Source: a virus
Length of the DNA stretch: 25,861 nucleotides
Strand: one strand, 5' to 3'
Virus genome (UHGV): UHGV-0115523
Both the position numbers and the translations under genes were made by a program. Shown piece by piece: positions 10,191-24,749 of the stretch. Under the pieces are notes generated by a model. It saw only the letters and a list, made by a program, of their open reading frames with translations. It searched no databases and was not told the DNA's origin. Positions within the stretch are counted from its first letter, which is position 1, and each line of letters opens with the position of its first letter.

Positions 10191-11957
10191 ATGAACACCA
10201 CACTGACACCCGCAGATCTCGATCCCCGTCGGCAGGCCATGCTGCTGTACTTTCAGGGATACCGCGTAGCCCGCATTGCTGAAATGCTGGGCGAGAAAGT
10301 TGCAACCGTTCACAGCTGGAAAAAACGCGACAAATGGGGTGACTATGGGCCGCTGGATCAGATGCAGCTCACCACCGCCGCACGCTACTGCCAGCTCATC
10401 ATGAAGGAGCACAAAGAAGGGAAAGATTTCAAAGAGATTGACCTGCTGGCGCGCCAGTCGGAGCGCCACGCGCGGATCGGCAAGTTTAACAATGGCGGCA
10501 ACGAAGCCGACTTAAACCCTAACGTCGCCAACCGCAACAAAGGCCCGCGCCGTCAGCCGGAAAAGAATGTCTTCACCGATGAACAGATTGAGAAGCTGGA
10601 AGAAATCTTCCATTCCTCCATGTTCAACTACCAGCGCCACTGGTGGGAAGCCGGAAAAACCAACCGCATCCGCAACCTGCTGAAGTCACGCCAGATCGGC
10701 GCGACCTTCTATTTTGCCCGTGAAGCCCTGATTGACGCTCTGCTGACCGGACGTAACCAGATTTTCCTTTCCGCAAGCAAGGCACAGGCCCACGTCTTTA
10801 AGCAGTACATCATCGACTTCGCCAAAGAAGTGGAGGTGGAGCTGAAAGGTGATCCGATGGTGCTTCCCAACGGGGCCACGCTTTACTTCCTCGGCACCAA
10901 TGCCCGCACGGCCCAGAGTTATCACGGCAACCTGTATCTGGATGAATATTTCTGGATACCGAAATTCCAGGAGCTGCGCAAAGTGGCTTCCGGTATGGCT
11001 ATTCACAAGAAATGGCGACAGACCTATTTTTCCACGCCATCCAGTCTGACACACAGTGCTTATCCGTTCTGGTCCGGTGCGCTGTTCAACCGTGGGCGCA
11101 ACAAAGCTGACAAGGTGGACATCGACCTGTCCCACAGCAATCTGGCCCCCGGCCTGCTGTGCGCAGACGGGCAATACCGCCAGATAGTCACCGTGGAAGA
11201 TGCGGTGCGCGGCGGCTGTAACCTGTTCGACCTTGACCAGTTGCGCATGGAGTACAGCCCGGACGAATACCAGAACCTGCTGATGTGTGAGTTCGTGGAC
11301 GATCTCGCGTCCGTGTTCCCGCTCAGCGAGCTGCAGGCGTGCATGGTGGACAGCTGGGAAGTCTGGACCGACTTTCATGCACTGGCTCTGCGCCCGTTTG
11401 GCTGGCGCGAAGTGTGGATCGGTTATGACCCGGCAAAAGGTACGCAAAACGGCGACAGCGCCGGATGCGTGGTGGTGGCACCGCCAGCCGTGCCGGGCGG
11501 CAAGTTTCGCATTCTTGAGCGTCACCAGTGGCGCGGGATGGACTTCCGCGCCCAGGCTGACGCGATCAAAAAACTGACCGAACAGTACAACGTGACCTAT
11601 ATCGGTATCGACTCGACCGGCGTTGGTCACGGGGTTTATGAGAACGTGAAAGCGTTCTTTCCTGCCGTCCGGGAGTTTGTCTACAACCCCAACGTTAAAA
11701 ACGCCCTGGTACTCAAGGCCTACGACATTATCAGCCACCGCCGTCTGGAGTTTGACGCCGGGCACACCGACATTGCGCAGTCATTTATGGCAATCCGTCG
11801 CGCCACCACCGCCAGCGGCAACCGCCCGACCTATGAAGCCAACCGCAGCGAAGAAGCCAGCCATGCCGATCTGGCCTGGGCAACAATGCACGCACTGTTT
11901 AACGAACCGCTGCAGGGCGAGTCCGCCAATACCAGCAATATTGTGGAGATTTTTTGA
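10191..11957 (+). CDS. P: Terminase ATPase (large) subunit (P2 gpP-like)
   Basis: 588 aa (P2 gpP is about 590 aa); N-terminus MNTTLTPADLDPRRQAMLLYFQGYRVARIAEMLGEKVATVHSWKKRDKW; stop overlaps the Q start. Confidence 0.9.
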   Translation: MNTTLTPADLDPRRQAMLLYFQGYRVARIAEMLGEKVATVHSWKKRDKWGDYGPLDQMQLTTAARYCQLIMKEHKEGKDFKEIDLLARQSERHARIGKFNNGGNEADLNPNVANRNKGPRRQPEKNVFTDEQIEKLEEIFHSSMFNYQRHWWEAGKTNRIRNLLKSRQIGATFYFAREALIDALLTGRNQIFLSASKAQAHVFKQYIIDFAKEVEVELKGDPMVLPNGATLYFLGTNARTAQSYHGNLYLDEYFWIPKFQELRKVASGMAIHKKWRQTYFSTPSSLTHSAYPFWSGALFNRGRNKADKVDIDLSHSNLAPGLLCADGQYRQIVTVEDAVRGGCNLFDLDQLRMEYSPDEYQNLLMCEFVDDLASVFPLSELQACMVDSWEVWTDFHALALRPFGWREVWIGYDPAKGTQNGDSAGCVVVAPPAVPGGKFRILERHQWRGMDFRAQADAIKKLTEQYNVTYIGIDSTGVGHGVYENVKAFFPAVREFVYNPNVKNALVLKAYDIISHRRLEFDAGHTDIAQSFMAIRRATTASGNRPTYEANRSEEASHADLAWATMHALFNEPLQGESANTSNIVEIF

Positions 11958-12985
11958 TGGGAAAGAGTAAGAAGAACCGCGCTGCGGCGACGAATCAGAT
12001 CCAGTATAAAAAACAAACTTCAGCCGAAGCATTCAGCTTCGGTGATCCCGTTCCTGTTCTGGACCGCCGCGAATTACTGGACTATGTGGAATGCGTACAG
12101 ACAGATCGCTGGTATGAGCCGCCAGTAAGCTTTGACGGACTGGCGCGCACCTTCCGCGCCGCCGTGCATCACAGTTCACCAATTGCGGTGAAATGCAACA
12201 TTCTGACCAGTACCTACATCCCTCACCCGCTGCTCAGCCAGCAGGCTTTTTCACGTTTTGTGCAGGACTATCTGGTATTTGGTAACGCCTACCTGGAGAA
12301 ACGCACGAACCGCTTCGGTGAAATTATCGCCTTTGAACCTGCCCTGGCAAAATACACACGACGCGGGTTAGACCTGGATACCTACTGGTTTGTGCAATAC
12401 GGTATGACAACCCAGCCGTATCAGTTCACGAAAGGCAGCATTTTTCATCTGATGGAACCGGACATCAACCAGGAGATCTACGGCCTGCCCGGTTATCTTT
12501 CTGCCATTCCGTCAGCCCTGCTCAACGAGTCCGCCACGCTGTTCCGCCGGAAGTATTACATTAACGGCAGTCATGCAGGCTTCATCATGTACATGACCGA
12601 CGCCGCACAAAACCAGGAGGATGTGAACAACCTCCGCAACGCGATGAAAAGCGCCAAAGGCCCAGGTAACTTCCGCAACCTGTTTATGTACTCGCCTAAC
12701 GGCAAAAAGGACGGGCTTCAGATCATCCCGTTGTCAGAAGTCGCGGCGAAGGATGAGTTTCTGAATATCAAAAATGTCAGCCGCGATGACATGATGGCTG
12801 CGCACCGCGTACCGCCTCAGATGATGGGGATTATGCCAAATAATGTAGGGGGGTTTGGAGATGTGGAGAAGGCTAGTAAGGTATTTGTACGCAACGAACT
12901 GATGCCGCTTCAAAAGCGCTTCGAGGAATTGAATAGTTGGGTAGGAAAATCTGTGGTCAACTTTAACACTTATATATTATCTTAA
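11954..12985 (+). CDS. Q: Portal protein (P2 gpQ-like)
   Basis: 343 aa (P2 gpQ is about 344 aa); P-Q on the strand opposite to O-N-M-L, as in P2. Confidence 0.9.
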   Translation: MMGKSKKNRAAATNQIQYKKQTSAEAFSFGDPVPVLDRRELLDYVECVQTDRWYEPPVSFDGLARTFRAAVHHSSPIAVKCNILTSTYIPHPLLSQQAFSRFVQDYLVFGNAYLEKRTNRFGEIIAFEPALAKYTRRGLDLDTYWFVQYGMTTQPYQFTKGSIFHLMEPDINQEIYGLPGYLSAIPSALLNESATLFRRKYYINGSHAGFIMYMTDAAQNQEDVNNLRNAMKSAKGPGNFRNLFMYSPNGKKDGLQIIPLSEVAAKDEFLNIKNVSRDDMMAAHRVPPQMMGIMPNNVGGFGDVEKASKVFVRNELMPLQKRFEELNSWVGKSVVNFNTYILS

Positions 12986-13036: not shown

Positions 13037-13318
13037 TCAAAAAGATAATAATCGCCCCCCAACATTTTCGATAAAATCTAACTCTAACTCCTCCATATCG
13101 GATATTATCATGAGATGAATAGGCAATATCAATTGAAGTTTATTTATTTTCATTCTCAAAAGAATAACATCTGGAACATAACCAACGATTAAAATATCGA
13201 TGTCATTGGCTTCATCGATACTTTTGAGTGCGGAGCCAAACAAATAAACCCGGACTCCATACAAGCAATGCTCCAAAATAATATCACAAACAGCTTCAGT
13301 TATAACTGATAAATTCAT
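13037..13318 (-). CDS. Minimal nucleotidyltransferase (MNT, Pol-beta superfamily) domain protein, about 93 aa; start trimmed to the Met that overlaps the upstream stop
   Basis: Motif LFGSALKSIDEANDIDILIV fits hG[GS]-x9-DhD; ATG at 13316-13318 overlaps the upstream TGA (TGATG coupling); AT-rich. Confidence 0.6.
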   Translation of the reverse strand: MNLSVITEAVCDIILEHCLYGVRVYLFGSALKSIDEANDIDILIVGYVPDVILLRMKINKLQLILPIHLMIISDMEELELDFIENVGGRLLSF

Positions 13319-13968
13319 CACTTCGAAATTCGACTCAGCAAATCTCCCCATTTGAATATTTCAATATTCATACTTCGGGCTGCAATGGTAGCCTCATGGG
13401 TAATTCTACTATAAGGGTTAGACGATAAAATAATATCGCAACCGCCATGTATCTGACATGCAGTGCGCACAGCCTCTGCACTCAAATCATAATCATTCAC
13501 GGAAAGAATAATCAAACTTGGTCCTGAACACCTTTCAACCATATATTTTTTATTGGTCAACCTTTCGACACTGCTGACATCAGAGTGTTGACGGAGTCCA
13601 CGGATAATAAATTTATTTTCTTTATCAAGATGTTCACTGATATTTTCTAAATCTAAACCCGTTGAAAAACGTCCAAAAGAATCATATGCAATCCCTTTTG
13701 ACCGTAGCAACTCAATTGCATCTCCAGACATAAATAACAAATCGCCTTGAATAATTAGTATATTTAATTCTTTATCATTCAAATATTCATTTAAATCGGA
13801 TAGTTCTATTCTTCCTGCATTTACAGCACCAACAAGATATATCTCCCCATTCCTTGTTGTTACCGTTAAAGTTTGATTGTCATGTTCTATAACATTATCA
13901 ACACTATGTTTAGTGCATAACTTTTTATTCATCCAATTAATAAAATTCTGACTCATTCCAATGCTCAT
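13318..13968 (-). CDS. Hypothetical 216-aa protein, middle gene of the cargo operon (contains an RGLRQH stretch; function unknown)
   Basis: Long ORF tightly coupled to flanking genes (3-nt gap upstream, 1-nt overlap downstream); AGGGTGA RBS; AT-rich. Confidence 0.5.
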   Translation of the reverse strand: MSIGMSQNFINWMNKKLCTKHSVDNVIEHDNQTLTVTTRNGEIYLVGAVNAGRIELSDLNEYLNDKELNILIIQGDLLFMSGDAIELLRSKGIAYDSFGRFSTGLDLENISEHLDKENKFIIRGLRQHSDVSSVERLTNKKYMVERCSGPSLIILSVNDYDLSAEAVRTACQIHGGCDIILSSNPYSRITHEATIAARSMNIEIFKWGDLLSRISK

Positions 13969-13971
13969 AAC

Positions 13972-14667
13972 TCACCCTTTAAATAAATCAATTGCTTCAG
14001 GAGGGAATTTCTCACCATTATCACATGTTAACTCTAAATGTTTTGATTCAAAATCATCAACATGCATGCAAAGCTTAACAAAAACATCTTTTTCATCTTC
14101 ATGAATTAATTGATAATTTTTATCAATTAGTCTTATAATTTTTCTGTTATTAGGTAGGATATGTGTTTGGATTTTCCTTAACCATATATTTACTTGCGGA
14201 CTTTCAGGGTTTAGTGCTGCCTCTGATTGGGGTCCATACGTATTAAATATTACTTTATTTTCCCTAAACAACTTATCAAGCTCAGCATGTACCTCTTCAC
14301 GGCTATCAAACTCACGAACTCCAAAGGTTGCATTAATTTTCGCGATATGCTCTCCTTTCCATCCCCTGATAATTTCATCCGTATAATAATTCTCAGCTTT
14401 ATCTATTTTAGTATGACAATTAGCGCAAAGAAGAATTATATTATCAAAATACCCTCTCTCTTCGGCAGTTAATTCCGTATTAGTTCTAGGCCCATTATCA
14501 ATTGCACTGAATATATGCGCCAATTCACCAATTGTAATAATTTTATCTCCAGCATCTTCGAACAACGGTTCAAGACATTTAGGGTTCTGGCAATACCCAC
14601 CTGAACTTGCGAAGAGCTTCCTGACTGTGATTGATCCGGGACTAGCCCGCCCTCGTGAACATGCCAT
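13972..14667 (-). CDS. HNH nuclease-domain protein (N-terminal HNH motif plus about 140-aa C-terminal domain of unknown function)
   Basis: CQNPKC ... ELAHI ... FDNIILLCANCH gives the CxxC...H...N...CxxCH HNH signature; AGGAGA RBS; first gene of the three-gene operon. Confidence 0.65.
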   Translation of the reverse strand: MACSRGRASPGSITVRKLFASSGGYCQNPKCLEPLFEDAGDKIITIGELAHIFSAIDNGPRTNTELTAEERGYFDNIILLCANCHTKIDKAENYYTDEIIRGWKGEHIAKINATFGVREFDSREEVHAELDKLFRENKVIFNTYGPQSEAALNPESPQVNIWLRKIQTHILPNNRKIIRLIDKNYQLIHEDEKDVFVKLCMHVDDFESKHLELTCDNGEKFPPEAIDLFKG

Positions 14668-14786
14668 TTCGTATCTCCTGATTGGGTTCGAATTTTACAA
14701 TAAATTATGATAATCAAACAAATTTAGCTAGCAAATAAATTTCCTATGTCGTTTAATTTCCCTAGCGTTTTAATATCAAGCGCGCG

Positions 14787-14805
14787 CTCGTATCCCCGCC
14801 ACGCC
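14787..14805 (-). other. Candidate cos (cohesive end) site of the P2/186 type
   Basis: Minus-strand GGCGTGGCGGGGATACGAG resembles the remembered 19-nt cohesive ends of 186 (GGCGTGGCGGGGAAAGCAT) and P2 (GGCGAGGCGGGGAAAGCAC); lies at the expected place beyond the 3' end of Q. Confidence 0.5.
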
Positions 14806-15147
14806 TGCCCGCTTTATGTAGTGGTTTTCATGCAGGTGCATGATCTACGCAAAAGCCCGCCAGTTCTGGCGGGCCTTAGCAAAAACGATCCTCAAACGAT
14901 CATGCAATCTCATGCAGCATAGACATGCACAGACGAGTAAAGCGAATCGGACCTTACGCAAGGTGAACTCCTCAGCGGGCATAATCAGTATGTCGGAAGA
15001 TCTCTAAAAATAAATAATTCGGTTAACAGGTATGCTTACAAAAGCATATATTTGATTAAAAATCATGTAAGGGGGAGGATCTCAAACTGAATCGCCACGG
15101 GTTTTACAAATTTCGATAGTCTCTCTAACGTTTCGGCTGAGGTCAAA

Positions 15148-15573
15148 ATGAAAAGCTTTTACGTATTAATTTTAATTCTGGTTGCAAGCTTTGTTAGCGT
15201 CCCAGTTCAGGCGGTAACAGCTAAAAACTATGAGAAAGGAACTAAAGCTCAACAGAAATCAATATCTTACCTTTCATGTGCATTCTATGGCAGTAGCACA
15301 CAATTAGATCCTAGCTACACGGAGCAAGTACCTACAGCCGATATCAAGATATTACAGAAAGCAGCTTACCACGCTTACAACGATGCGCTCTCATACTTTG
15401 GCTATGAGGAACCAGATCACGAACAACGCATAATTGATTATGCTGAATTTGTGGCGTCGCAAGAAGCTGTGTTATGGGATAAGCCGGGAATGAATGGAAA
15501 GCAGGTAACACTAATTGCTCGTTCTCTCTACAATGAGAGTAACTGTAACTTGTTACTGGACTCAATTAAGTAG
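15148..15573 (+). CDS. Secreted or periplasmic hypothetical protein with cleavable signal peptide (cargo)
   Basis: N-terminus MKSFYVLILILVASFVSVPVQA then mature domain; GAGGT RBS; AT-rich. Confidence 0.55.
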   Translation: MKSFYVLILILVASFVSVPVQAVTAKNYEKGTKAQQKSISYLSCAFYGSSTQLDPSYTEQVPTADIKILQKAAYHAYNDALSYFGYEEPDHEQRIIDYAEFVASQEAVLWDKPGMNGKQVTLIARSLYNESNCNLLLDSIK

Positions 15574-15732
15574 GAAAAAGATGGTATTTTGCCCGTAGTT
15601 TCAACCTTAATCTCCGAACCTGTCGCAGAACGGGCGTTCACTCATCAAATAAACGCCACACCTAACGCCTCACTGTACTCGTTGTTCAACCTTGCTGACG
15701 CCAGAACCAAGTTCAGACGCCAGCAACTTTTC

Positions 15733-15966
15733 TTAATGCAGCCAGCTGTCGTCTTCCCACACCTTCTGCATAATCTTCATCACTTGTTTTCTTTCTTCGT
15801 CCAGTTGCAGTCCGGTCAGTTCCACACCGTTAGAGCTACCTTTGCGGATGCGAATTACCATTTTGGGATACAGGGGGCGCAGATTGCGGTAAAGCTCGGA
15901 TTCAAGGGCGTCCAGGGTAGACTGGCTAATCTTCTGCTCTTTATCGATCATTATTTCAATGCGCAT
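15733..15966 (-). CDS. DinI-family protein (about 77 aa)
   Basis: MRIEIMIDKEQKISQSTLDALESELYRNLRPLYPKMVIRIRKGSSNGVELTGLQLDEERKQVMKIMQKVWEDDSWLH matches the DinI pattern (MRIE..., acidic W-containing C-terminus); GAGGTG RBS; the ORF-track frame extends upstream to 16038 but that start is less likely. Confidence 0.65.
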   Translation of the reverse strand: MRIEIMIDKEQKISQSTLDALESELYRNLRPLYPKMVIRIRKGSSNGVELTGLQLDEERKQVMKIMQKVWEDDSWLH

Positions 15967-15976
15967 AAAGGTCACC

Positions 15977-16165
15977 TCAGCTGATGACATCCATTGAGCG
16001 GTTGTATTCGTGGGTTCTGATTTTTGCCATGAGTTCATCAGTCAATTCAGAAACCCACTGCAGAGCCAGCCCCTTCTCTTCATCACTACACTCACTAGCC
16101 GCTACAAGCTTAAGAAAAAAATCAATGCGCTGGAGCTTCAAAGACTCCAAAAAATAGTCCTGCAT
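15977..16165 (-). CDS. Small 62-aa protein, first gene of a LexA-box-controlled cassette
   Basis: Strong AGGAGG RBS 7 nt upstream of the ATG; LexA box 43-58 bp upstream; stop 10 nt before the DinI-like start. Confidence 0.5.
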   Translation of the reverse strand: MQDYFLESLKLQRIDFFLKLVAASECSDEEKGLALQWVSELTDELMAKIRTHEYNRSMDVIS

Positions 16166-16207
16166 CTTTCCTCCTATGACACCAAAGTAATACTGTATAT
16201 ATAACCA

Positions 16208-16223
16208 CTGTCTATATTTACAG
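16208..16223 (-). promoter_or_regulatory. LexA (SOS) box CTGT-N8-ACAG
   Basis: actgtctatatttacagta is near-consensus to TACTGTATATATATACAGTA; an adjacent half-site tactgtatat lies at 16191-16200. Confidence 0.65.
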
Positions 16224-16317
16224 TATATAATAATCTTACTGATGTAAAACGTTTTTTTACGTTCATCAGCCTGAAATGCCTGGTATTATTAAGAGCACGA
16301 ATTGTTAACCCGCGTAA

Positions 16318-18732
16318 TTAATACAGGTTCCGCCACTTATCATCTTCCTGCAAACGCTGGTTCCGATAGAAGATACGCAGGCCTGCTCCTGACGGAATAC
16401 TGCCGCCGCGAAGGAGTAAATCGACCTCTTTCTCGCTGCCATCAAATCCTCTGGACTTCAGTTCATAGACGAGCTGCTGTCGCTGATGGTCTGTAATTCG
16501 CTGTTTGTAGTCTTTACGCCGTTTCGGTTTCACCAGGCGTAACCTTGCAGCCAGTTCCCGGCGCTCTTTTTTGCTCATACTGTGCAGGTATTCGTGCAAC
16601 TCCTTGTCATCCATGCGGGTAATGTCCGTTCTGGTATCCCCATCAGCTGATTTGTCTTCCCCTTGTTGGTTCAAATTTTCAGCAAGGGGACAGTTATTGC
16701 CACGAGTCCAAGGGGCGCAAGCGCCCTGGTCGGCTGCCGCCTCCTGAACGTCAACGGCTTTACGAACCATTTTCCACTTCACTGCATGAGTGCAGATCTT
16801 GCCCTCTGCAATGGGTGACCAGATGCCATAAATACGAATGCCGTGATCGCCATAGGCGGTCGGCTCTTCGTTGATTTCATAAGCGGTTCTGATGAGGTGA
16901 TATTTACGGGGAACCAGCACGCCGCCCTGCTTCATGATGTAGGTGGCAAAACAACCAGCATCAGCAGCAGCCAAGATGGCATCAAGGCGCGGGTTATCCA
17001 GTACCGGCGCACCTGCTTTTTTGTCCCCCTGTTGCCTTGACGCCTGACCAGCCAGCAATCGCAGTTCACGGTAAGCCTGACGCCCCGGAATGCCAAAGAA
17101 GCGGAATTGCTGAACACGATGCAAAGACGCCCAGGCGTTCACGTATTCAGCGTTATCACGCAGAGATTTACCCGTTACCTTGCTGATCTCGCCAGCCAGA
17201 CCACGCCCGTCAATGTTCTTACTGATGTATTTCGCTATGTAGCTTGTCGGCGTTCCTTTGCGCGGGTTAATCAGCTCAGACTTAAAGCGCGGCCCCGTGT
17301 TATTGCCCAGCTCCTCGCGGTCTTCACGGATAGCAAACTTACGCAACAATGCAGTAATGGCGCGGCGGTCTTTTTTGCGCATGAAACACAACAGGTGCCA
17401 GTGAACTGTGCCGTCGTGATGCGGCTCAGCCACCCGCACGCCATACCAGCGCAACCCGGCTTTGTGCATCGCCTTACGAAATGCAGCAAACATACCGACC
17501 AGATAATCGCTGCTTTGTCTTACCGTCGCATTTGTCCAGGTCGGGTTGGGCCTGCCGTTATTTAGCGTGGAATGGAAACGTGACGGACAGGTGATGGTGT
17601 AGAAAACGGCGCAGTCACCGCGCATTTCCGCGATAAGCTCCAGACCTTTAACACAGGCCATCATCTCATTGCGGCGATGCGCAGGGTTGCTGCTGCTGGC
17701 GTTTACCACATCCTCCATGTCCAGCGTGTCGCCGTCTTCGTTCACCAGTTCATGAGAACGGAAAAACTCCAGCGACTTACGGCGCTGCTCACGTTTATGC
17801 AACACGGCTTCATAGCTGACATAGGGAGATGCTTTTTTGCTGACAAGGCAGACAGCACGCAACTGCTCTTCCCGCCATTCGCAACGCATCTTCCATAATT
17901 TCCGATACCACCAATCGGCGCACAACATACGCGCCAGCGAACCCGGAATGAGTTCATAGGGCACGGGTTTACGGCGGTTTCTTTTCCGGCGGAGTTGCTC
18001 AAACGCAGGCGGGATGACATCCAGTCGCAGGGTTTCTGCTGCCACCTTTTCCCATGTCTTGCGGATTTCTTCTGGCTTAACATCATCGGTGGCGTACAAA
18101 TCACCACAAGCGGCATCAAGACACATACTCATATGCGCAGCGACAAGAGTAGACAGGCGTTTCACCTGATCCTGACTCATTTCAGGCAGGATCAGCAGGC
18201 CGTCCAGCCCTTCATGGCTTGCCATAAAGCGAAAAGAAGTGGATAGCTGACTGTCGCGTACATGCTCCAGTCGTTCCAGACATGGCTTAATCGTCTCACG
18301 CAAATAGCGGGAATAAGCCTTTGGCCTCCCCAGGCTGCTGAAGTATTCGATACGTTGCATCAGCGGCTTGCTGATGTGGGTGGGCTGGGCGCTGACGTCC
18401 GCCAGAATGACGATGTCCGGGTTAAAACGCTGCTGCTCATGCGCCAGCTTTGCCCGACTAATGAGCTTATCCTGCTCCATTTCGCGCTGGACAGGATCAC
18501 GGGATTCATTAAAGAAATAACGCTCCCAGACCTGTTCACTCAATTCCTCGCGGCGCAGCTGTTCCTGCTCGTTATCGGCAGCATACAGAGTGATCAGGTT
18601 TGAAAGCGCAGAAACCGGCGCAACTTCCGCCGGGTCCAGATAAGGGTTTATGGCCTTTTTCGGGCCGTTCCATGAAAATGCTGCAGCGGCCTCGTTAAAG
18701 CCGCTAGAGTCGCTCATATCGGCATGACTCAT
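16318..18732 (-). CDS. A: Replication initiation endonuclease (P2 gpA-like, rolling-circle initiator)
   Basis: 804 aa; position upstream of cos and downstream of the early genes as in P2/186. Confidence 0.8.
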
Positions 18733-22061: not shown

Positions 22062-22943
22062 ATGAATTTCAAAAACGGAGGACAAGCAGTCATAACGCGC
22101 ATGCTTGAAGCGTATGGATTCAAGACAAGGCAAGCTCTGTGCGAACAGTTCAACGTATCTGCAAGCACTATGGGCACGCGCTGGATGCGTGACGTATTTC
22201 CTGCTGACTGGGTAATTCAGTGTGCAATTGAAACGGGTGCATCTATCGAGTGGCTCTCATTCGGAAAAGGCGTACCATTCCCTCAGAGTACTGAGGCTCC
22301 GGTCATGTCAAAGGCAACTGCATCAAAGGTTCAGCACGTTTCTCAAGCCACCACCCTGAAGTCCCCAATTGGGAACGATCTGAATTTTGACTCAGGCGGA
22401 CGTGATGCAATAGACAGGCTAATGAAAGCGTATGGCTTTAAAACAAGACAAGAACTTGCCGACCATCTGAATGTATCTAAAAGCACTATGGCAAATAGAT
22501 ATTTGCGAGACACATTCCCGGCTGATTGGATCATAAAATGTTCGTTGGAAACAGGAAATTCTCTTTTATGGCTAGCCACTGGACAAGGCAGCGAGCACAA
22601 TGCTCTCACAACATCGGTAAAAGAACTGCCTAAATTTCATCTCAATGCAGGCAAAATGGTTGAGAGTGGCTCATATATTTTCGATTCGTCATTTTTACCC
22701 GCTAATCTTTCAGCACCAATTGTCGTTCAGGATGGTTTAGTGGCATACATCTGTGATCAGAAATTTTCTGATGTATTAGATGGATACTGGTTAATTAATA
22801 TTGATGGAACCTATTCCGTCAGACAAATTACTAGGCTACCTAAAGGTATGATAAATATCAGAAGTAAAGAAACTTACTTTGAATGTGCATTTTCTGATAT
22901 CGAGGTAGTTGCATGCATAAGAAGCACAATCATTTCGAATTAA
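22062..22943 (+). CDS. cI: CI immunity repressor (186 CI family) with a tandemly duplicated N-terminal DNA-binding domain
   Basis: Two copies of the 186-CI-type NTD signature (AYGFKTRQ...NVS.STM..R..RD.FPADW.I.C..ETG.S..WL..G.G) at residues ~9-70 and ~115-176; 293 aa versus about 192 aa for 186 CI. Confidence 0.7.
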   Translation: MNFKNGGQAVITRMLEAYGFKTRQALCEQFNVSASTMGTRWMRDVFPADWVIQCAIETGASIEWLSFGKGVPFPQSTEAPVMSKATASKVQHVSQATTLKSPIGNDLNFDSGGRDAIDRLMKAYGFKTRQELADHLNVSKSTMANRYLRDTFPADWIIKCSLETGNSLLWLATGQGSEHNALTTSVKELPKFHLNAGKMVESGSYIFDSSFLPANLSAPIVVQDGLVAYICDQKFSDVLDGYWLINIDGTYSVRQITRLPKGMINIRSKETYFECAFSDIEVVACIRSTIISN

Positions 22944-23023: not shown

Positions 23024-24226
23024 ATGAGTAAAACCAACTTTAAAACTGAACGCGGCATTATAACATTTTTTGATTTAGAAATGTTTGGCCTTTATAAAAT
23101 ACGACAAGGCAAATCGCCGGAATTAGTCGAAAAGAACTTATCCCATGTTCTGTGTAACTTACATAGCTGGATCTGTTCAAGAACAGTTGAACAATCTGTT
23201 CCATGGGGAAAGGATAATAATAGAAGAACAAAAGCATACTGTAAAAATATTTCATATGACAGTACGACAGGAGATTATCTATTTGTTATCTGGAAAACGC
23301 TTGGTGATAACTCTGGAAATATTCAAGGTATAGATGCTGAAAGTAAGATTGACGGCACTTCAGATAATGTTGTATCCGCCTCTGATACTCAAGGTGGCGG
23401 TAAATATATCTGGGGCGTACCTTGCTACTATTGGGTAATTCCAGAATATAACAAAATTGCATCCATACGATTCCCAAGTTCTAATACGGATACAGATCTT
23501 TTCTGTCATTATATTAAAGCATACGTTGACTTTAGGATGGAGCATCCTAATAAAAAAGTCATAGATATGACTCGTCCTCGTAATGACTCACCTGAAGACG
23601 TTCATTACAAACGTGTTCTTTTTTCTCAAGGTGATGATGAAAGTTTAGTTTTTAAAGTACAGACTAAACAAACAAGGATGATCACGAGTGGAGCAAACAT
23701 AGAAGAACTGTGTAAAAAAATCACTCACATTGTTTACCATGACGTAATAGAAACAAACATACCTGATACACGGGAAAAATGGCAGAAGTTATTTGATGCA
23801 GTTGGAGATGTTTTCTCAAGAAGCTCTCCTATTTTATCAAAAAAACATCGCGTTGAATTATTAGTCGAAGGAACGCCTACGCCTGAAGAGTTCACTAAAC
23901 TCATCGATGAATATATAGAAAACCACAATCCTATTTCAGAAGATACAGAAAACAACAATGAGAATGTAGGGAATGATCACGCACGCATCGGATTCAAAAT
24001 AAATGGGAAAAATGGTTCAACTACTTGGTTAGATGAATATGTTTATCGCCATGAAATTCACGTTGACCTTTCTAACAGAAACAAACATTACTCTTCTTCA
24101 TATTTAATGAGTGTGGTAAAAGCTCATAGAAATGATTTGGTGAATTGTTTTAAAAATGAAGATATAATAGAACAACCAGAAGCTGATAATGATACAGCAG
24201 TGCAGATTCATAAAATAGGTGCATAG
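23024..24226 (+). CDS. Hypothetical 400-aa protein (cargo; candidate sensor of a two-gene module)
   Basis: Long AT-rich ORF immediately downstream of cI on the same strand; no motif recognised. Confidence 0.55.
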   Translation: MSKTNFKTERGIITFFDLEMFGLYKIRQGKSPELVEKNLSHVLCNLHSWICSRTVEQSVPWGKDNNRRTKAYCKNISYDSTTGDYLFVIWKTLGDNSGNIQGIDAESKIDGTSDNVVSASDTQGGGKYIWGVPCYYWVIPEYNKIASIRFPSSNTDTDLFCHYIKAYVDFRMEHPNKKVIDMTRPRNDSPEDVHYKRVLFSQGDDESLVFKVQTKQTRMITSGANIEELCKKITHIVYHDVIETNIPDTREKWQKLFDAVGDVFSRSSPILSKKHRVELLVEGTPTPEEFTKLIDEYIENHNPISEDTENNNENVGNDHARIGFKINGKNGSTTWLDEYVYRHEIHVDLSNRNKHYSSSYLMSVVKAHRNDLVNCFKNEDIIEQPEADNDTAVQIHKIGA

Positions 24227-24227
24227 T

Positions 24228-24749
24228 ATGATTATAAAACCTAAAATTTTGCACATATGTTTTCTCCTAACAATTATAGCTATTGCTTATTTGTTCGGAG
24301 ACAAATATACGTATGCAGATATAAAAGATATTTTATCTACCTTGCAAAACATTTCTGCAATGATCTTCACTATTGCAGGTATTTGGCTTGCATATATTTA
24401 CCCTGCAGCTGTAAGTTCAATTGTAAAGCCATCAACAATAACTAGTATAAACTATCATAAGGAAACAGAAAAAGATATTGAGCGAATTACGCTGATAGTG
24501 AAAACCATTATAATTTCAGCTATTGTAATATTTTCTATTGTTATAATAAATTTAACGAAACCTATATTTTCAAATCTGGATTTCATTTCCTTGCATAAGC
24601 ACGTGTTCTGCAAGTTTGGATTTTTTATCACAGCGTTATTAGTATATCTACAAATAATAGCGTTATTTAGTATCATTGCTAGTAATATATTATTTCTTAA
24701 TGATATACATGATAAAAGAAATAAACGAGAGCTTGATAAATTAAGGTAA
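24228..24749 (+). CDS. Small integral membrane protein with four predicted TM helices (cargo; candidate membrane effector)
   Basis: Four hydrophobic stretches; ATG at 24228 with AGGTG RBS, one nt after the upstream stop; GTG at 24219 is the ORF-track alternative. Confidence 0.55.
   Translation: MIIKPKILHICFLLTIIAIAYLFGDKYTYADIKDILSTLQNISAMIFTIAGIWLAYIYPAAVSSIVKPSTITSINYHKETEKDIERITLIVKTIIISAIVIFSIVIINLTKPIFSNLDFISLHKHVFCKFGFFITALLVYLQIIALFSIIASNILFLNDIHDKRNKRELDKLR

Follow-up and report, generated by a model that had tools for sequence, protein, structure and literature searches.

In P2-like prophages, the hotspot near cos has proved to be a reservoir of anti-phage systems. In the P2 record, old and tin are lysogenic-conversion exclusion genes, transcribed away from cos from an mRNA start that lies 150-170 nt from cosR. 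Old is an AAA/OLD nuclease, and both Old and Tin act inside the cell. For phage 186, the record of orf97 states that its "expression from plasmid blocks 186 infection". Other small phage exclusion proteins, such as T4 Imm, TP-J34 Ltp, T5 Llp and phi80 Cor, are exported beyond the cytoplasm and act alone. The helical protein Spackle (Sp) of the virulent phage T4 is soluble in the periplasm, where it prevents genome delivery. The gpA-gpQ locus is a documented defence hotspot of P2 (PMC9122126).

The locus described here belongs to the virus genome UHGV-0115523, analysed as a single stretch of 25,861 nucleotides (the window). The portal gene (11954-12985), the cos site (14787-14805), a 141-aa ORF and gpA (16318-18732) follow each other in this order, so that the ORF has the portal gene Q on one side and the replication gene A on the other, the location by which the hotspot of P2-like prophages is recognised. 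The RefSeq protein WP_000834899.1 is identical to the ORF product. This accession appears as 'hypothetical', with varying neighbours, in Table S5A of Rousset et al. 2022 (PMC9122126), and it was not found in the part of Table S5B of that work that was available (PMC9122126). It is also absent from the supplements of Vassallo et al., and a literature search found it in no paper's main text.

The gene and its place beside cos

The ORF occupies positions 15148-15573 of the plus strand, and its product starts with MKSFYVLILILVASFVSVPVQA. The first-pass annotation had proposed a 141-aa ORF with a good RBS, and its exact position, strand and N-terminus agree with our reading, as does the Shine-Dalgarno sequence GAGG, read from the sequence at 15139-15142 (plus strand), 5 nt ahead of the ATG. 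The start codon and the signal peptide are kept in four of four aligned contexts, and the Shine-Dalgarno position reads GAGG or AAGG in three of them and GAAA in the lambdoid copy. Pairwise comparisons with three orthologues, carried by 186-like prophages of the K. aerogenes type, by a lambdoid prophage and by a P2-like prophage of Hafnia, gave dN/dS values of 0.18-0.27. The intact ORF, with at least 99% identity, is present in 101 of 5,426 complete E. coli genomes (~2%), and no disrupted copy exists among these 101 carriers. The HMM of PHROG 7437 ('unknown function') matches the ORF along its full length (residues 1-141 on profile positions 1-141 of 141, E 4.3e-99). Because of the dN/dS values, the 101 intact copies and this full-length match, the ORF is, judged by its sequence, a genuine gene and more than a chance reading frame.

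Between cos and the DinI-like gene, this is the sole credible gene on the plus strand, in line with the initial description of the ORF as standing alone there. An overlapping antisense ORF of 73 aa and a 131-aa ORF at 15589-15984 were rejected as mechanical ORFs, and a search of Rfam over 14500-16400 found no RNA family. The ORF has a GC content of 40.4% (GC3 38.7%), whereas the window as a whole has 49.6% and its structural and replication core 54-61%, so that the gene is indeed AT-rich with respect to the phage core.

The neighbourhood of cos had been recognised from the outset, and it holds up well. The cohesive-end core at 14787-14805 (minus strand) reads GGCGTGGCGGGGATACGAG and matches the annotated P2 cosR 19-mer at 14 of 19 positions; the block beside it, GCATnAAAACC...AAGCGGGC, is also conserved. 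A 150-bp block (14778-14930) is conserved in 94 P2-like phage records from Klebsiella, Escherichia, Yersinia and Salmonella. Immediately after it starts a single-gene cargo cassette of about 730 bp (14931-15661, plus strand), whose flanks at 14930 and 15660 were delimited by BLASTN against related prophages. One related prophage has an empty site, in which the two flanks are 7 bp apart, and in others the site is filled by a different single gene, coding for an HNH endonuclease, a DUF4145 protein or, in BL21(DE3), a 111-aa hypothetical protein. The ORF is found in 101 of the 1,285 genomes that bear the flanks, and about 92% of them do not carry it. The early description of the gene as an accessory moron, to be checked by its presence or absence in related prophages, is thus borne out by a discrete, low-GC cassette that is polymorphic for presence and replacement at a fixed site. 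By comparison with these prophages, the gene can be described as accessory cargo, carried in a cassette of its own at the hotspot next to cos in a P2/186-like prophage of E. coli.

Among 31 IMG/VR loci, the same ORF is joined to 20 or more different cargo segments on the portal side and, since it is combined with so many of them, it probably works alone. Searches with tblastn and blastn against 50,697 GenBank phage records gave no match to the ORF or the cassette, the gene being known only from prophages and IMG/VR contigs. A search of species-representative genomes for related loci, using the family alignment, gave no confirmed locus. The carriers were isolated from humans, livestock, pets, food and water, with no restriction to any one source, and no pathotype enrichment was found among the carriers listed.

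The SOS operon that had been noted next to the gene lies outside the cassette, at 15733-16223 on the minus strand, and is the equivalent of the 186 p95/tum operon. It consists of a perfect LexA box (CTGTCTATATTTACAG, 16208-16223, minus strand) followed by a 62-aa phrog_698 ORF (15977-16165, minus strand) and a DinI-like ORF (minus strand, ending at 15733), which shares 40% identity with the C-terminal part of 186 Tum. LexA control of the 141-aa ORF was considered and rejected: no LexA box lies upstream of the ORF, which thus does not appear to be SOS-controlled, whereas its neighbour has a perfect one. The sole near-match (15543-15558, one mismatch) lies within the coding region, at its 3' end, and such sites occur at chance level in the window.

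A sigma-70-like promoter may be located at 15023-15052 on the plus strand (TTAACA, 18 nt, TATATT; 10 of 12 consensus positions), spanning the junction between unique cassette sequence and a gene remnant described below. It is to be taken as a candidate only, because the region holds about as many promoter-like sites as shuffled sequence does (4 found, shuffle mean 3.4). It is overlapped by a 6-bp palindrome, ATGCTTACAAAAGCAT (15033-15048), that is conserved in the K. aerogenes-type cassette. An intrinsic terminator was not found downstream of the gene (folding z = 0.51).

The ORF and the SOS operon converge with no terminator between them, an arrangement that might point to a function in the phage cycle itself at the envelope, such as lysis timing, protection from lysis-from-without by sibling virions, or release, rather than to a conversion factor expressed in the lysogen. 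The position of other family members goes in the same direction: that of Hafnia has the late genes S and V on its two sides and the lysis cassette beside it, and others are in the lambdoid early-left region or downstream of tail-fibre genes. However, the gene appears to be dispensable for the phage cycle, because about 92% of the flank-sharing prophages lack it and some sites are empty. Like P2 old/tin, it is also transcribed against the direction of the early and SOS operons, and the S-V site is itself a known P2 accessory site (orf30). A phage-cycle function is, in our opinion, very unlikely.

The predicted exported protein and its family

The coding part of the signal peptide extends from 15148 to 15213 (plus strand, residues 1-22), as delimited by hydropathy and the (-3,-1) rule. 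By these rules, the n-region has K2 as the sole basic residue, the hydrophobic core is composed of 16 residues (SFYVLILILVASFVSV, with Kyte-Doolittle 11-mer means of up to 3.35) and the c-region has Pro at -4, V at -3 and A at -1, so that cleavage by SPase I is predicted after VQA, before V. The same n-h-c/AxA-type pattern is present in 16 of 16 aligned family members, although the residues themselves are variable. The protein sequence has no lipobox cysteine, nor any Cys before residue 44. A classical signal peptide had been claimed for this protein, and rule-based criteria support one of the Sec/SPase-I type. The low AF2 confidence for residues 1-24 is compatible with a signal peptide and is no test of one.

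The mature domain (15214-15573 including the stop codon, plus strand) would comprise 119 aa, with a mass of 13.4 kDa and a pI of 5.1. It has exactly two cysteines, Cys44 and Cys133, both of them conserved in the family alignment. The AF2 model is a five-helix bundle (mean pLDDT 88.7, pTM 0.76) with helices at residues 25-50, 63-83, 91-110, 120-130 and 133-140. The mature protein is therefore predicted, on the basis of this model, to be a compact five-helix bundle with two conserved cysteines. The positions conserved in the family alignment are Y41, C44, A99, A107, W110 (invariant), Y128, N132 and C133, and the conserved helix-loop reads IIDYAEFVASQEAVLWDKPGMN. These positions form no recognisable catalytic set, which, together with the all-helical model, suggests a binding protein rather than an enzyme.

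Neither of the two database entries that correspond to the protein is informative: PHROG 7437 matches along its full length and WP_000834899.1 is identical, but both are placeholders without functional or structural annotation. An exhaustive HMM search recovered only about 15 clusters, all of them Enterobacterales hypothetical proteins. Every cluster that could be placed occupies an accessory position in a temperate phage, a phage-plasmid-like plasmid or another mobile element. The 13 placed contexts examined include the 186-like cos slot, the P2-like S-V slot, the lambdoid tail-fibre end, integrase-proximal sites, the lambdoid early-left region and phage-plasmid-like elements. The family moves among eight or more distinct (pro)phage or phage-plasmid settings. 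The distant relatives are only 24-40% identical and the motif is strongly conserved among them.

Beyond PHROG 7437, nothing was found that would name the family, as anticipated in the first-pass annotation, which could assign none. Neither the protein nor any of the 16 family members gave a match above noise in Pfam, NCBIfam or PADLOC, and PADLOC-DB 2.0 (5,027 models) gave 0 families at E <= 1. A search of PDB sequences with the single sequence produced no significant hit, the best one being an Xaa-Pro dipeptidase (E 0.24), and with the family profile it produced 0 hits. With Foldseek, the model matched no PDB or BFVD entry at an E value below 0.5, and no significant sequence or fold match to Spackle or to other known exclusion proteins was present in PDB or BFVD. 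As far as these searches go, the ORF matches no named family and belongs to a very small family that is confined to Enterobacterales and carried only as cargo of mobile elements.

The conservation of the motif across relatives that are 24-40% identical argues for a conserved target, perhaps of the host, and fits roles in host physiology as well as it fits a block of phage entry. The protein could then be a host-adaptive lysogenic-conversion factor with no relation to phages or toxins, namely a periplasmic stress, chaperone-like or host-interaction protein raising the fitness of the lysogen in the gut or animal host. The morons bor, lom and sodC are precedents for this kind of function, and stress chaperones are known among the small helical proteins of the E. 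coli periplasm. The moron architecture, the occurrence in many temperate phages of enteric bacteria only, and the isolation of carriers from people, livestock, pets, food and water are also in agreement with it. However, Spy/CpxP, HdeA/B, cytochrome b562 and other periplasmic helical families are absent from the sequence and fold matches, the carriers listed show no pathotype enrichment, and the characterised occupants of the slot are all anti-phage. For these reasons a host-adaptive function is regarded as rather unlikely.

The upstream remnant and its intact counterparts

Upstream of the gene, at 15042-15125 on the plus strand, there is a decayed remnant that corresponds to the last ~28 codons of a gene for a 215-aa membrane protein with two TM segments, interrupted by two in-frame stops. 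In a tblastn search with the Hafnia 215-aa protein, KHTFDYKSGKWEDLK--PWEFYRFRDAL was aligned with KHIFD*KSCKGEDLKLNRHGFYKFR*SL (57% identity; E 1e-5 in a small search), and the homology is also visible in the nucleotide alignment. In a Hafnia P2-like prophage, the 215-aa membrane-protein gene is intact and located directly upstream of the orthologue. Intact two-gene and five-gene versions are found in prophages of Hafnia, Klebsiella and Scandinavium. Since the ~85 nt upstream of it are a decayed remnant of the partner gene, the E. coli gene is best read, from these alignments, as the surviving downstream half of a two-gene envelope module, composed of a 2-TM protein followed by a periplasmic protein.

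In K. aerogenes/Scandinavium-type prophages, the family member is in an operon with a 157-aa secreted protein and with other secreted proteins. The 157-aa protein resembles a distant paralogue, with weak reciprocal HMM matches (1e-5 and 2e-4 in small databases). Homology to the family was not supported for the neighbouring secreted proteins of Siccibacter, of 154 and 165 aa, the hhalign comparison being not significant.

The decay of the partner to a stub with stop codons, together with the lack of a strong promoter or terminator, could mean that the gene is a non-functional relic, an orphaned leftover of a disrupted two-gene module that hitch-hikes in the hotspot. This is hardly credible in view of the dN/dS of 0.18-0.27, the 0 disrupted copies in 101 genomes, the preservation of the start codon and signal peptide (4/4 contexts) and of the Shine-Dalgarno sequence (3/4), and the recombination of the cassette into many prophage backgrounds.

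The gene order and the decayed 3' stub also resemble orphan toxin-immunity modules. The product could thus be an immunity protein or inhibitor that neutralises a periplasm-acting antibacterial protein, an antidote that the prophage keeps alone to protect its host in interbacterial competition. Amidase or muramidase effectors of the T6SS, bacteriocins, lysozyme-like enzymes and the product of the former upstream partner might be its targets. A small, periplasmic, all-helical and disulfide-bonded protein is typical of T6SS amidase immunity, the operon with the 157-aa paralogue-like and other secreted proteins recalls immunity arrays, and a gene for the lysozyme inhibitor LprI is located 3 kb from the plasmid-borne homologue. 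However, in none of the 13 contexts is a recognisable toxin (T6SS, Rhs, CDI, colicin) found next to the gene, and the 215/219-aa partner, a membrane protein with two TM segments, matches no toxin family. The partner gene is present in Kluyvera without any family member, which would be difficult to explain for a toxin dependent on an antidote of this type. The relationship between the family and the neighbouring secreted proteins was not significant by hhalign, and with regard to the periplasmic immunity proteins of the T6SS (Tai4/Rap), neither an adjacent cognate effector nor a specific family match was found. An orphan immunity function is distinctly unlikely on this balance.

A possible envelope-level exclusion function and its precedents

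A lysogenic-conversion factor acting at the envelope, as suggested in the first-pass annotation, is plausible, and the slot and orientation are those of P2 old/tin. Our best guess, which is a tentative one, is that the ORF product acts in periplasmic superinfection exclusion. The gene would be expressed in the lysogen from a promoter at the cos-side edge of the cassette, independently of its LexA-controlled neighbour. The product would be exported to the periplasm, where Cys44 and Cys133 would form a disulfide made by DsbA, and would behave as a soluble binding protein, not as an enzyme. The conserved surface of helix 3 and its loop, YAEFVASQEAVLWDKPGMN, may bind a component on which genome delivery across the periplasm or inner membrane depends, either a tail-tip, tape-measure or ejection protein of the incoming phage or a host entry factor. 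This binding would exclude superinfecting phages at the entry step, following the logic of T4 Spackle and Ltp-type proteins. The precedents of the slot count for exclusion, since it is occupied by the P2 old/tin exclusion genes and by 186 orf97, which blocks 186 infection when expressed.

Guilt by location is a weak argument, because Rousset et al. observed a phenotype for only about one third of the systems that they cloned from the hotspot (PMC9122126), and non-defence cargo is carried there as well. Further observations count against exclusion. None of the 5,027 PADLOC models matches the ORF product, and no resemblance to a known exclusion protein was found in sequence or structure. Family members are found in lytic-cycle operons (lambdoid early-left; between late S and V), where expression in the lysogen is not obvious. 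As for the copy in the window, its promoter is a consensus match only and no terminator follows the gene.

A broader proposal is that the protein founds a new family of soluble periplasmic exclusion factors in temperate phages of enterobacteria, disulfide-locked helical bundles that intercept genome delivery in the periplasm, alone or with a 2-TM partner, and are traded as a one-gene cassette among P2-like, lambdoid and phage-plasmid genomes; this is conceivable but doubtful. If true, this would be the first soluble entry-blocker acting in the periplasm to be described from the P2 defence hotspot, almost all of whose characterised cargo is intracellular; otherwise, the ORF is one more hypothetical moron. 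It is in any case a well-defined candidate for an envelope-level function, whether this is the exclusion of entry, immunity to toxins or fitness of the envelope. The cassette of 730 bp forms a self-contained unit for which natural empty-site controls exist, and the partner remnant, together with the intact two- and five-gene versions, offers a route to mechanism.

Among the known systems, P2 old/tin and the ORF share the slot between cos and gene A and the direction of transcription, away from cos and opposite to the early operon. They are likewise non-essential, low in GC and variable among related prophages. However, the ORF product shows no sequence relation to Old or Tin, for which no export signal is annotated in the P2 record, and it has a predicted signal peptide and no enzymatic domain. 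In phage 186, the closest classical relative, orf97 also lies in the slot between tum/DinI and cos. Nevertheless, orf97 encodes 243 aa on the opposite strand, in the LexA-controlled p95 operon, without an annotated signal peptide; a relationship between the two products was sought and rejected (BLASTP E 1.6). Among the exported exclusion proteins, Llp, Cor and Ltp are lipoproteins, whereas the ORF product has no lipobox. By analogy, the logic proposed for the ORF product would be that of T4 Spackle, with an unrelated fold.

An accessory gene beside cos

The window is a P2/186-like (Peduoviridae) E. coli prophage in reverse orientation. Its tail, baseplate, lysis, capsid, terminase (10191-11957) and portal (11954-12985) genes are followed by low-GC cargo, cos, the gene under study (the ORF), a DinI-like operon and the replication endonuclease gene gpA (16318-18732, minus strand), and then by Dam methylase, CII and CI genes, a second cargo pair and the integrase. 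The ORF occupies 15148-15573 on the plus strand, encodes 141 aa and has a GAGG 5 nt before its ATG; with 40.4% GC versus 54-61% in the phage core, it is AT-rich, as the first-pass annotation had described it, together with its position, length and ribosome-binding site. It is a real gene, since pairwise Nei-Gojobori comparison with three orthologues (90%, 77% and 77% amino acid identity) puts dN/dS at 0.18-0.27 and dS at no more than 0.76, since 101 of 5,426 complete E. coli genomes carry an intact copy of ≥99% identity, as do about 30 IMG/VR viral contigs, and since its product is recorded in RefSeq (WP_000834899.1, "hypothetical protein") and matched end to end by PHROG 7437 ("unknown function", E 4e-99). 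That it is a relic is very improbable.

The proposed location, next to cos and beside an SOS cassette, also holds. The cos site (14787-14805, minus strand) reads GGCGTGGCGGGGATACGAG and equals P2 cosR at 14 of 19 positions, the reference being the ends annotated for P2 and 186; it is preceded by the conserved block GCATnAAAACC...AAGCGGGC, and a 150-bp block (14778-14930) is found again in 94 P2-like phage records. In related prophages, a RefSeq pseudogene ("hypothetical protein, internal stop") covers this block (L001 5943-6137, equivalent to window ~14720-14913, minus strand) and is best explained as a misannotation spanning the packaging site. On the other side, a perfect LexA box (16208-16223) lies upstream of a 62-aa phrog_698 ORF and a DinI-like ORF, an SOS operon (15733-16223, minus strand) that mirrors the annotated p95/LexA/tum arrangement of 186. 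The DinI-like ORF shares 40% identity with the corresponding C-terminal part of 186 Tum, itself DinI-like; no similarity of the 62-aa ORF to the N-terminal antirepressor half of Tum was found. The ORF under study is independent of the LexA box.

Alignment with related prophages places the cassette edges at ~14931 and ~15661. The site is empty in strain B20127, where the flanks are 7 bp apart, and is filled by an HNH endonuclease in Ec15103, a DUF4145 protein in STEC17-183 and a 111-aa hypothetical protein in BL21(DE3). The flanks are present in 1,285 E. coli genomes, the ORF itself in just 101, so its reading as a moron is supported. The gpA-gpQ interval is the P2 defence hotspot of Rousset et al. 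(PMC9122126), whose Table S5A already enters WP_000834899 as "hypothetical", with variable neighbours including HIRAN and DUF262/DUF1524 proteins. Among 31 loci sampled, at least 20 different portal-side cargo segments are paired with a ≥99% identical ORF, which therefore does not form a multi-gene system with the cargo across cos. It is an autonomous, mobile one-gene cargo in the old/tin slot.

The window carries other cargo. Between the portal gene and cos, three genes of 30-39% GC (13037-14667, minus strand) encode a 231-aa HNH protein (PADLOC candidate PDC-M68A, 1e-28) that is also similar to the N-terminal HNH parts of CBASS/SAVED effectors, a 216-aa protein that fits no family, and a minimal nucleotidyltransferase of 104 aa (NTP_transf_2). 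This is probably an uncharacterised defence system, and the STEC17-183 prophage has a 63-71% identical version in the same position (L010 752-2420). Between cI and int, a pair of 29-35% GC (23024-24749, plus strand) encodes 400-aa and 176-aa proteins that match PADLOC candidate system PDC-M18 (A 2e-36, B 5e-24) and contain no Pfam domain. The adjacent CI ORF (22062-22943, plus strand), as a predicted reading frame, comprises 293 aa, with tandem Phage_CI_repr HTH domains (~1-70 and ~107-176) ahead of a C-terminal domain of the usual kind, versus ~189 aa for CI in BL21's relative.

With respect to expression, a candidate promoter, TTAACA-18-TATATT (15023-15052), a consensus match only, spans the junction of unique cassette sequence and a gene remnant. 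Its spacer and -10 overlap a perfect palindrome with 6-bp arms, ATGCTTACAAAAGCAT (15033-15048), which is kept in the K. aerogenes-type cassette and may act as an operator or be coincidental. Downstream of the ORF no terminator was detected, and Rfam gave no RNA family match. The ORF is presumably expressed in the lysogen; that it serves the lytic development of the phage itself is improbable.

Predicted export and fold

The annotated signal peptide agrees with rule-based prediction: a single basic residue is followed by a hydrophobic core of 16 residues, position -4 is Pro, cleavage is predicted after V-Q-A, and no lipobox was found. The n-h-c/AxA architecture is present in 16/16 aligned relatives with differing residues, the way signal peptides evolve. 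The mature part (119 aa, 13.4 kDa, pI 5.1) has exactly two cysteines, the invariant C44 and the nearly invariant C133, compatible with a putative periplasmic disulfide. The product is thus probably periplasmic and disulfide-bonded.

AlphaFold2, run on the 16-sequence alignment, predicts a helical bundle (pLDDT 88.7, pTM 0.76; all five models 87-89) with helices at 25-50, 63-83, 91-110, 120-130 and 133-140, and an earlier model from six close sequences agrees. In the family alignment, conservation peaks in helix 3 and the loop after it, IIDYAEFVASQEAVLWDKPGMN, where W110 does not vary. No recognisable catalytic set appears among the conserved positions, and the product is therefore read as a binding protein.

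Relatives and a two-gene envelope module

The first-pass annotation could assign no family, and neither could Pfam, NCBIfam or PADLOC; PDB sequences gave no match with the single sequence or the family profile, nor did Foldseek below E 0.5 against PDB and BFVD. Searched exhaustively with HMMER, 1.84 billion representatives yielded 17 matches at E ≤ 0.001, about 14 of them true full-length relatives (126-168 aa), and another profile search, word-indexed, contributed just a few more. All named relatives are "hypothetical protein". Their hosts are Escherichia, Klebsiella, Enterobacter, Hafnia, Siccibacter, Rahnella, Scandinavium, Salmonella and Citrobacter, and every context that could be placed is an accessory position of a temperate phage, phage-plasmid or mobile element. 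These are the same cos slot in 186-like prophages of K. aerogenes-type genomes; the accessory site between S and V in a P2-like Hafnia prophage; in a lambdoid prophage, the host-proximal end beyond the tail-fibre genes; the early-left region of a lambdoid phage; positions directly 3' of integrase genes in K. quasipneumoniae, a metagenomic prophage and K. aerogenes/Scandinavium prophages; a ParA/ParG-bearing phage-like contig; a degraded Siccibacter island; a Citrobacter prophage end near umuDC/DinI and tail-spike genes; a resolvase-bearing Salmonella element; and, at 27-32% identity, non-mobilizable IncFIB plasmids of 105-116 kb in E. coli, Enterobacter and Citrobacter. These plasmids also have phage genes; on one (NZ_CP010244.1, E. 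coli), the homologue (L051 4986-5405, 31% identity) lies 3 kb from a "lysozyme inhibitor LprI family" gene.

About 110 nt 5' of the ATG move with the ORF into the Hafnia context, where they correspond to the 3' part of a 215-aa gene that stops 20 nt short of the orthologue. The window frame, KHIFD*KSCKGEDLKLNRHGFYKFR*SL, aligns with Hafnia KHTFDYKSGKWEDLK--PWEFYRFRDAL at 57% identity over 28 codons, with two stops. Since this stub of the partner gene survives 5' of the ORF, the E. coli cassette derives from an envelope module of two genes, of which only the downstream one has been kept, under purifying selection. The Hafnia partner has two N-terminal hydrophobic segments with a basic loop between them, so that, by the positive-inside rule, its C-terminal 165 aa should face the periplasm.

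In prophages of K. aerogenes, Scandinavium and IMG/VR, a 219-aa homologue (29% identical) lies ahead of a family member of 34% identity. There, an integrase-proximal operon (L054 6267-8635; L061 4001-6369; L062 1861-4229) encodes five proteins targeted to the envelope, in order the 219-aa 2-TM protein, the 131-aa family member and 116-aa, 157-aa and 141-aa signal-peptide proteins, none of the five with a Pfam or PHROG assignment. The 157-aa protein, homologous to a 165-aa protein in Siccibacter (L006), gives weak reciprocal HMM matches to the family and ends in its ...NCDLL motif, and may be a distant paralogue. The partner family is as small as that of the ORF and likewise unannotated.

These arrangements bear on the idea that the product is an orphan immunity protein against periplasm-acting toxins. 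The gene arrangement is orphan-like, but no toxin, T6SS, Rhs, CDI or colicin neighbour occurs in any context placed and a Kluyvera genome has the partner but no family member, and we consider this explanation unlikely.

Possible function and comparison with known cargo

For a soluble periplasmic protein that is stand-alone cargo of many temperate phages, few modes of action are possible. Entry-level superinfection exclusion is tentatively favoured, because the characterised occupants of the slot all exclude phages; a host-fitness factor is a somewhat unlikely alternative, and a share of the probability is assigned to none of the readings considered. For superinfection exclusion, the exported product would act in the lysogen periplasm, where any anti-phage action would be confined to genome delivery. 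Exclusion at this level has precedents in T4 Spackle and the Ltp-type proteins. The recently described periplasmic HXS effector (PMC13128918) is another.

The cautious interpretation of the first-pass annotation is supported overall, and nothing in the evidence so far points to an unusual mechanism. The ORF shares slot and orientation with P2 old/tin, whose annotated mRNA begins 150-170 nt from cosR and runs away from cos toward A. In 186 the slot is occupied by orf97, unrelated in sequence, whose record states that it "blocks 186 infection" when expressed. The ORF, catalogued before and never named or studied, stands out among hotspot cargo by its predicted export and is an uncharacterised example of a familiar class, the accessory cargo of the P2 cos-proximal hotspot.
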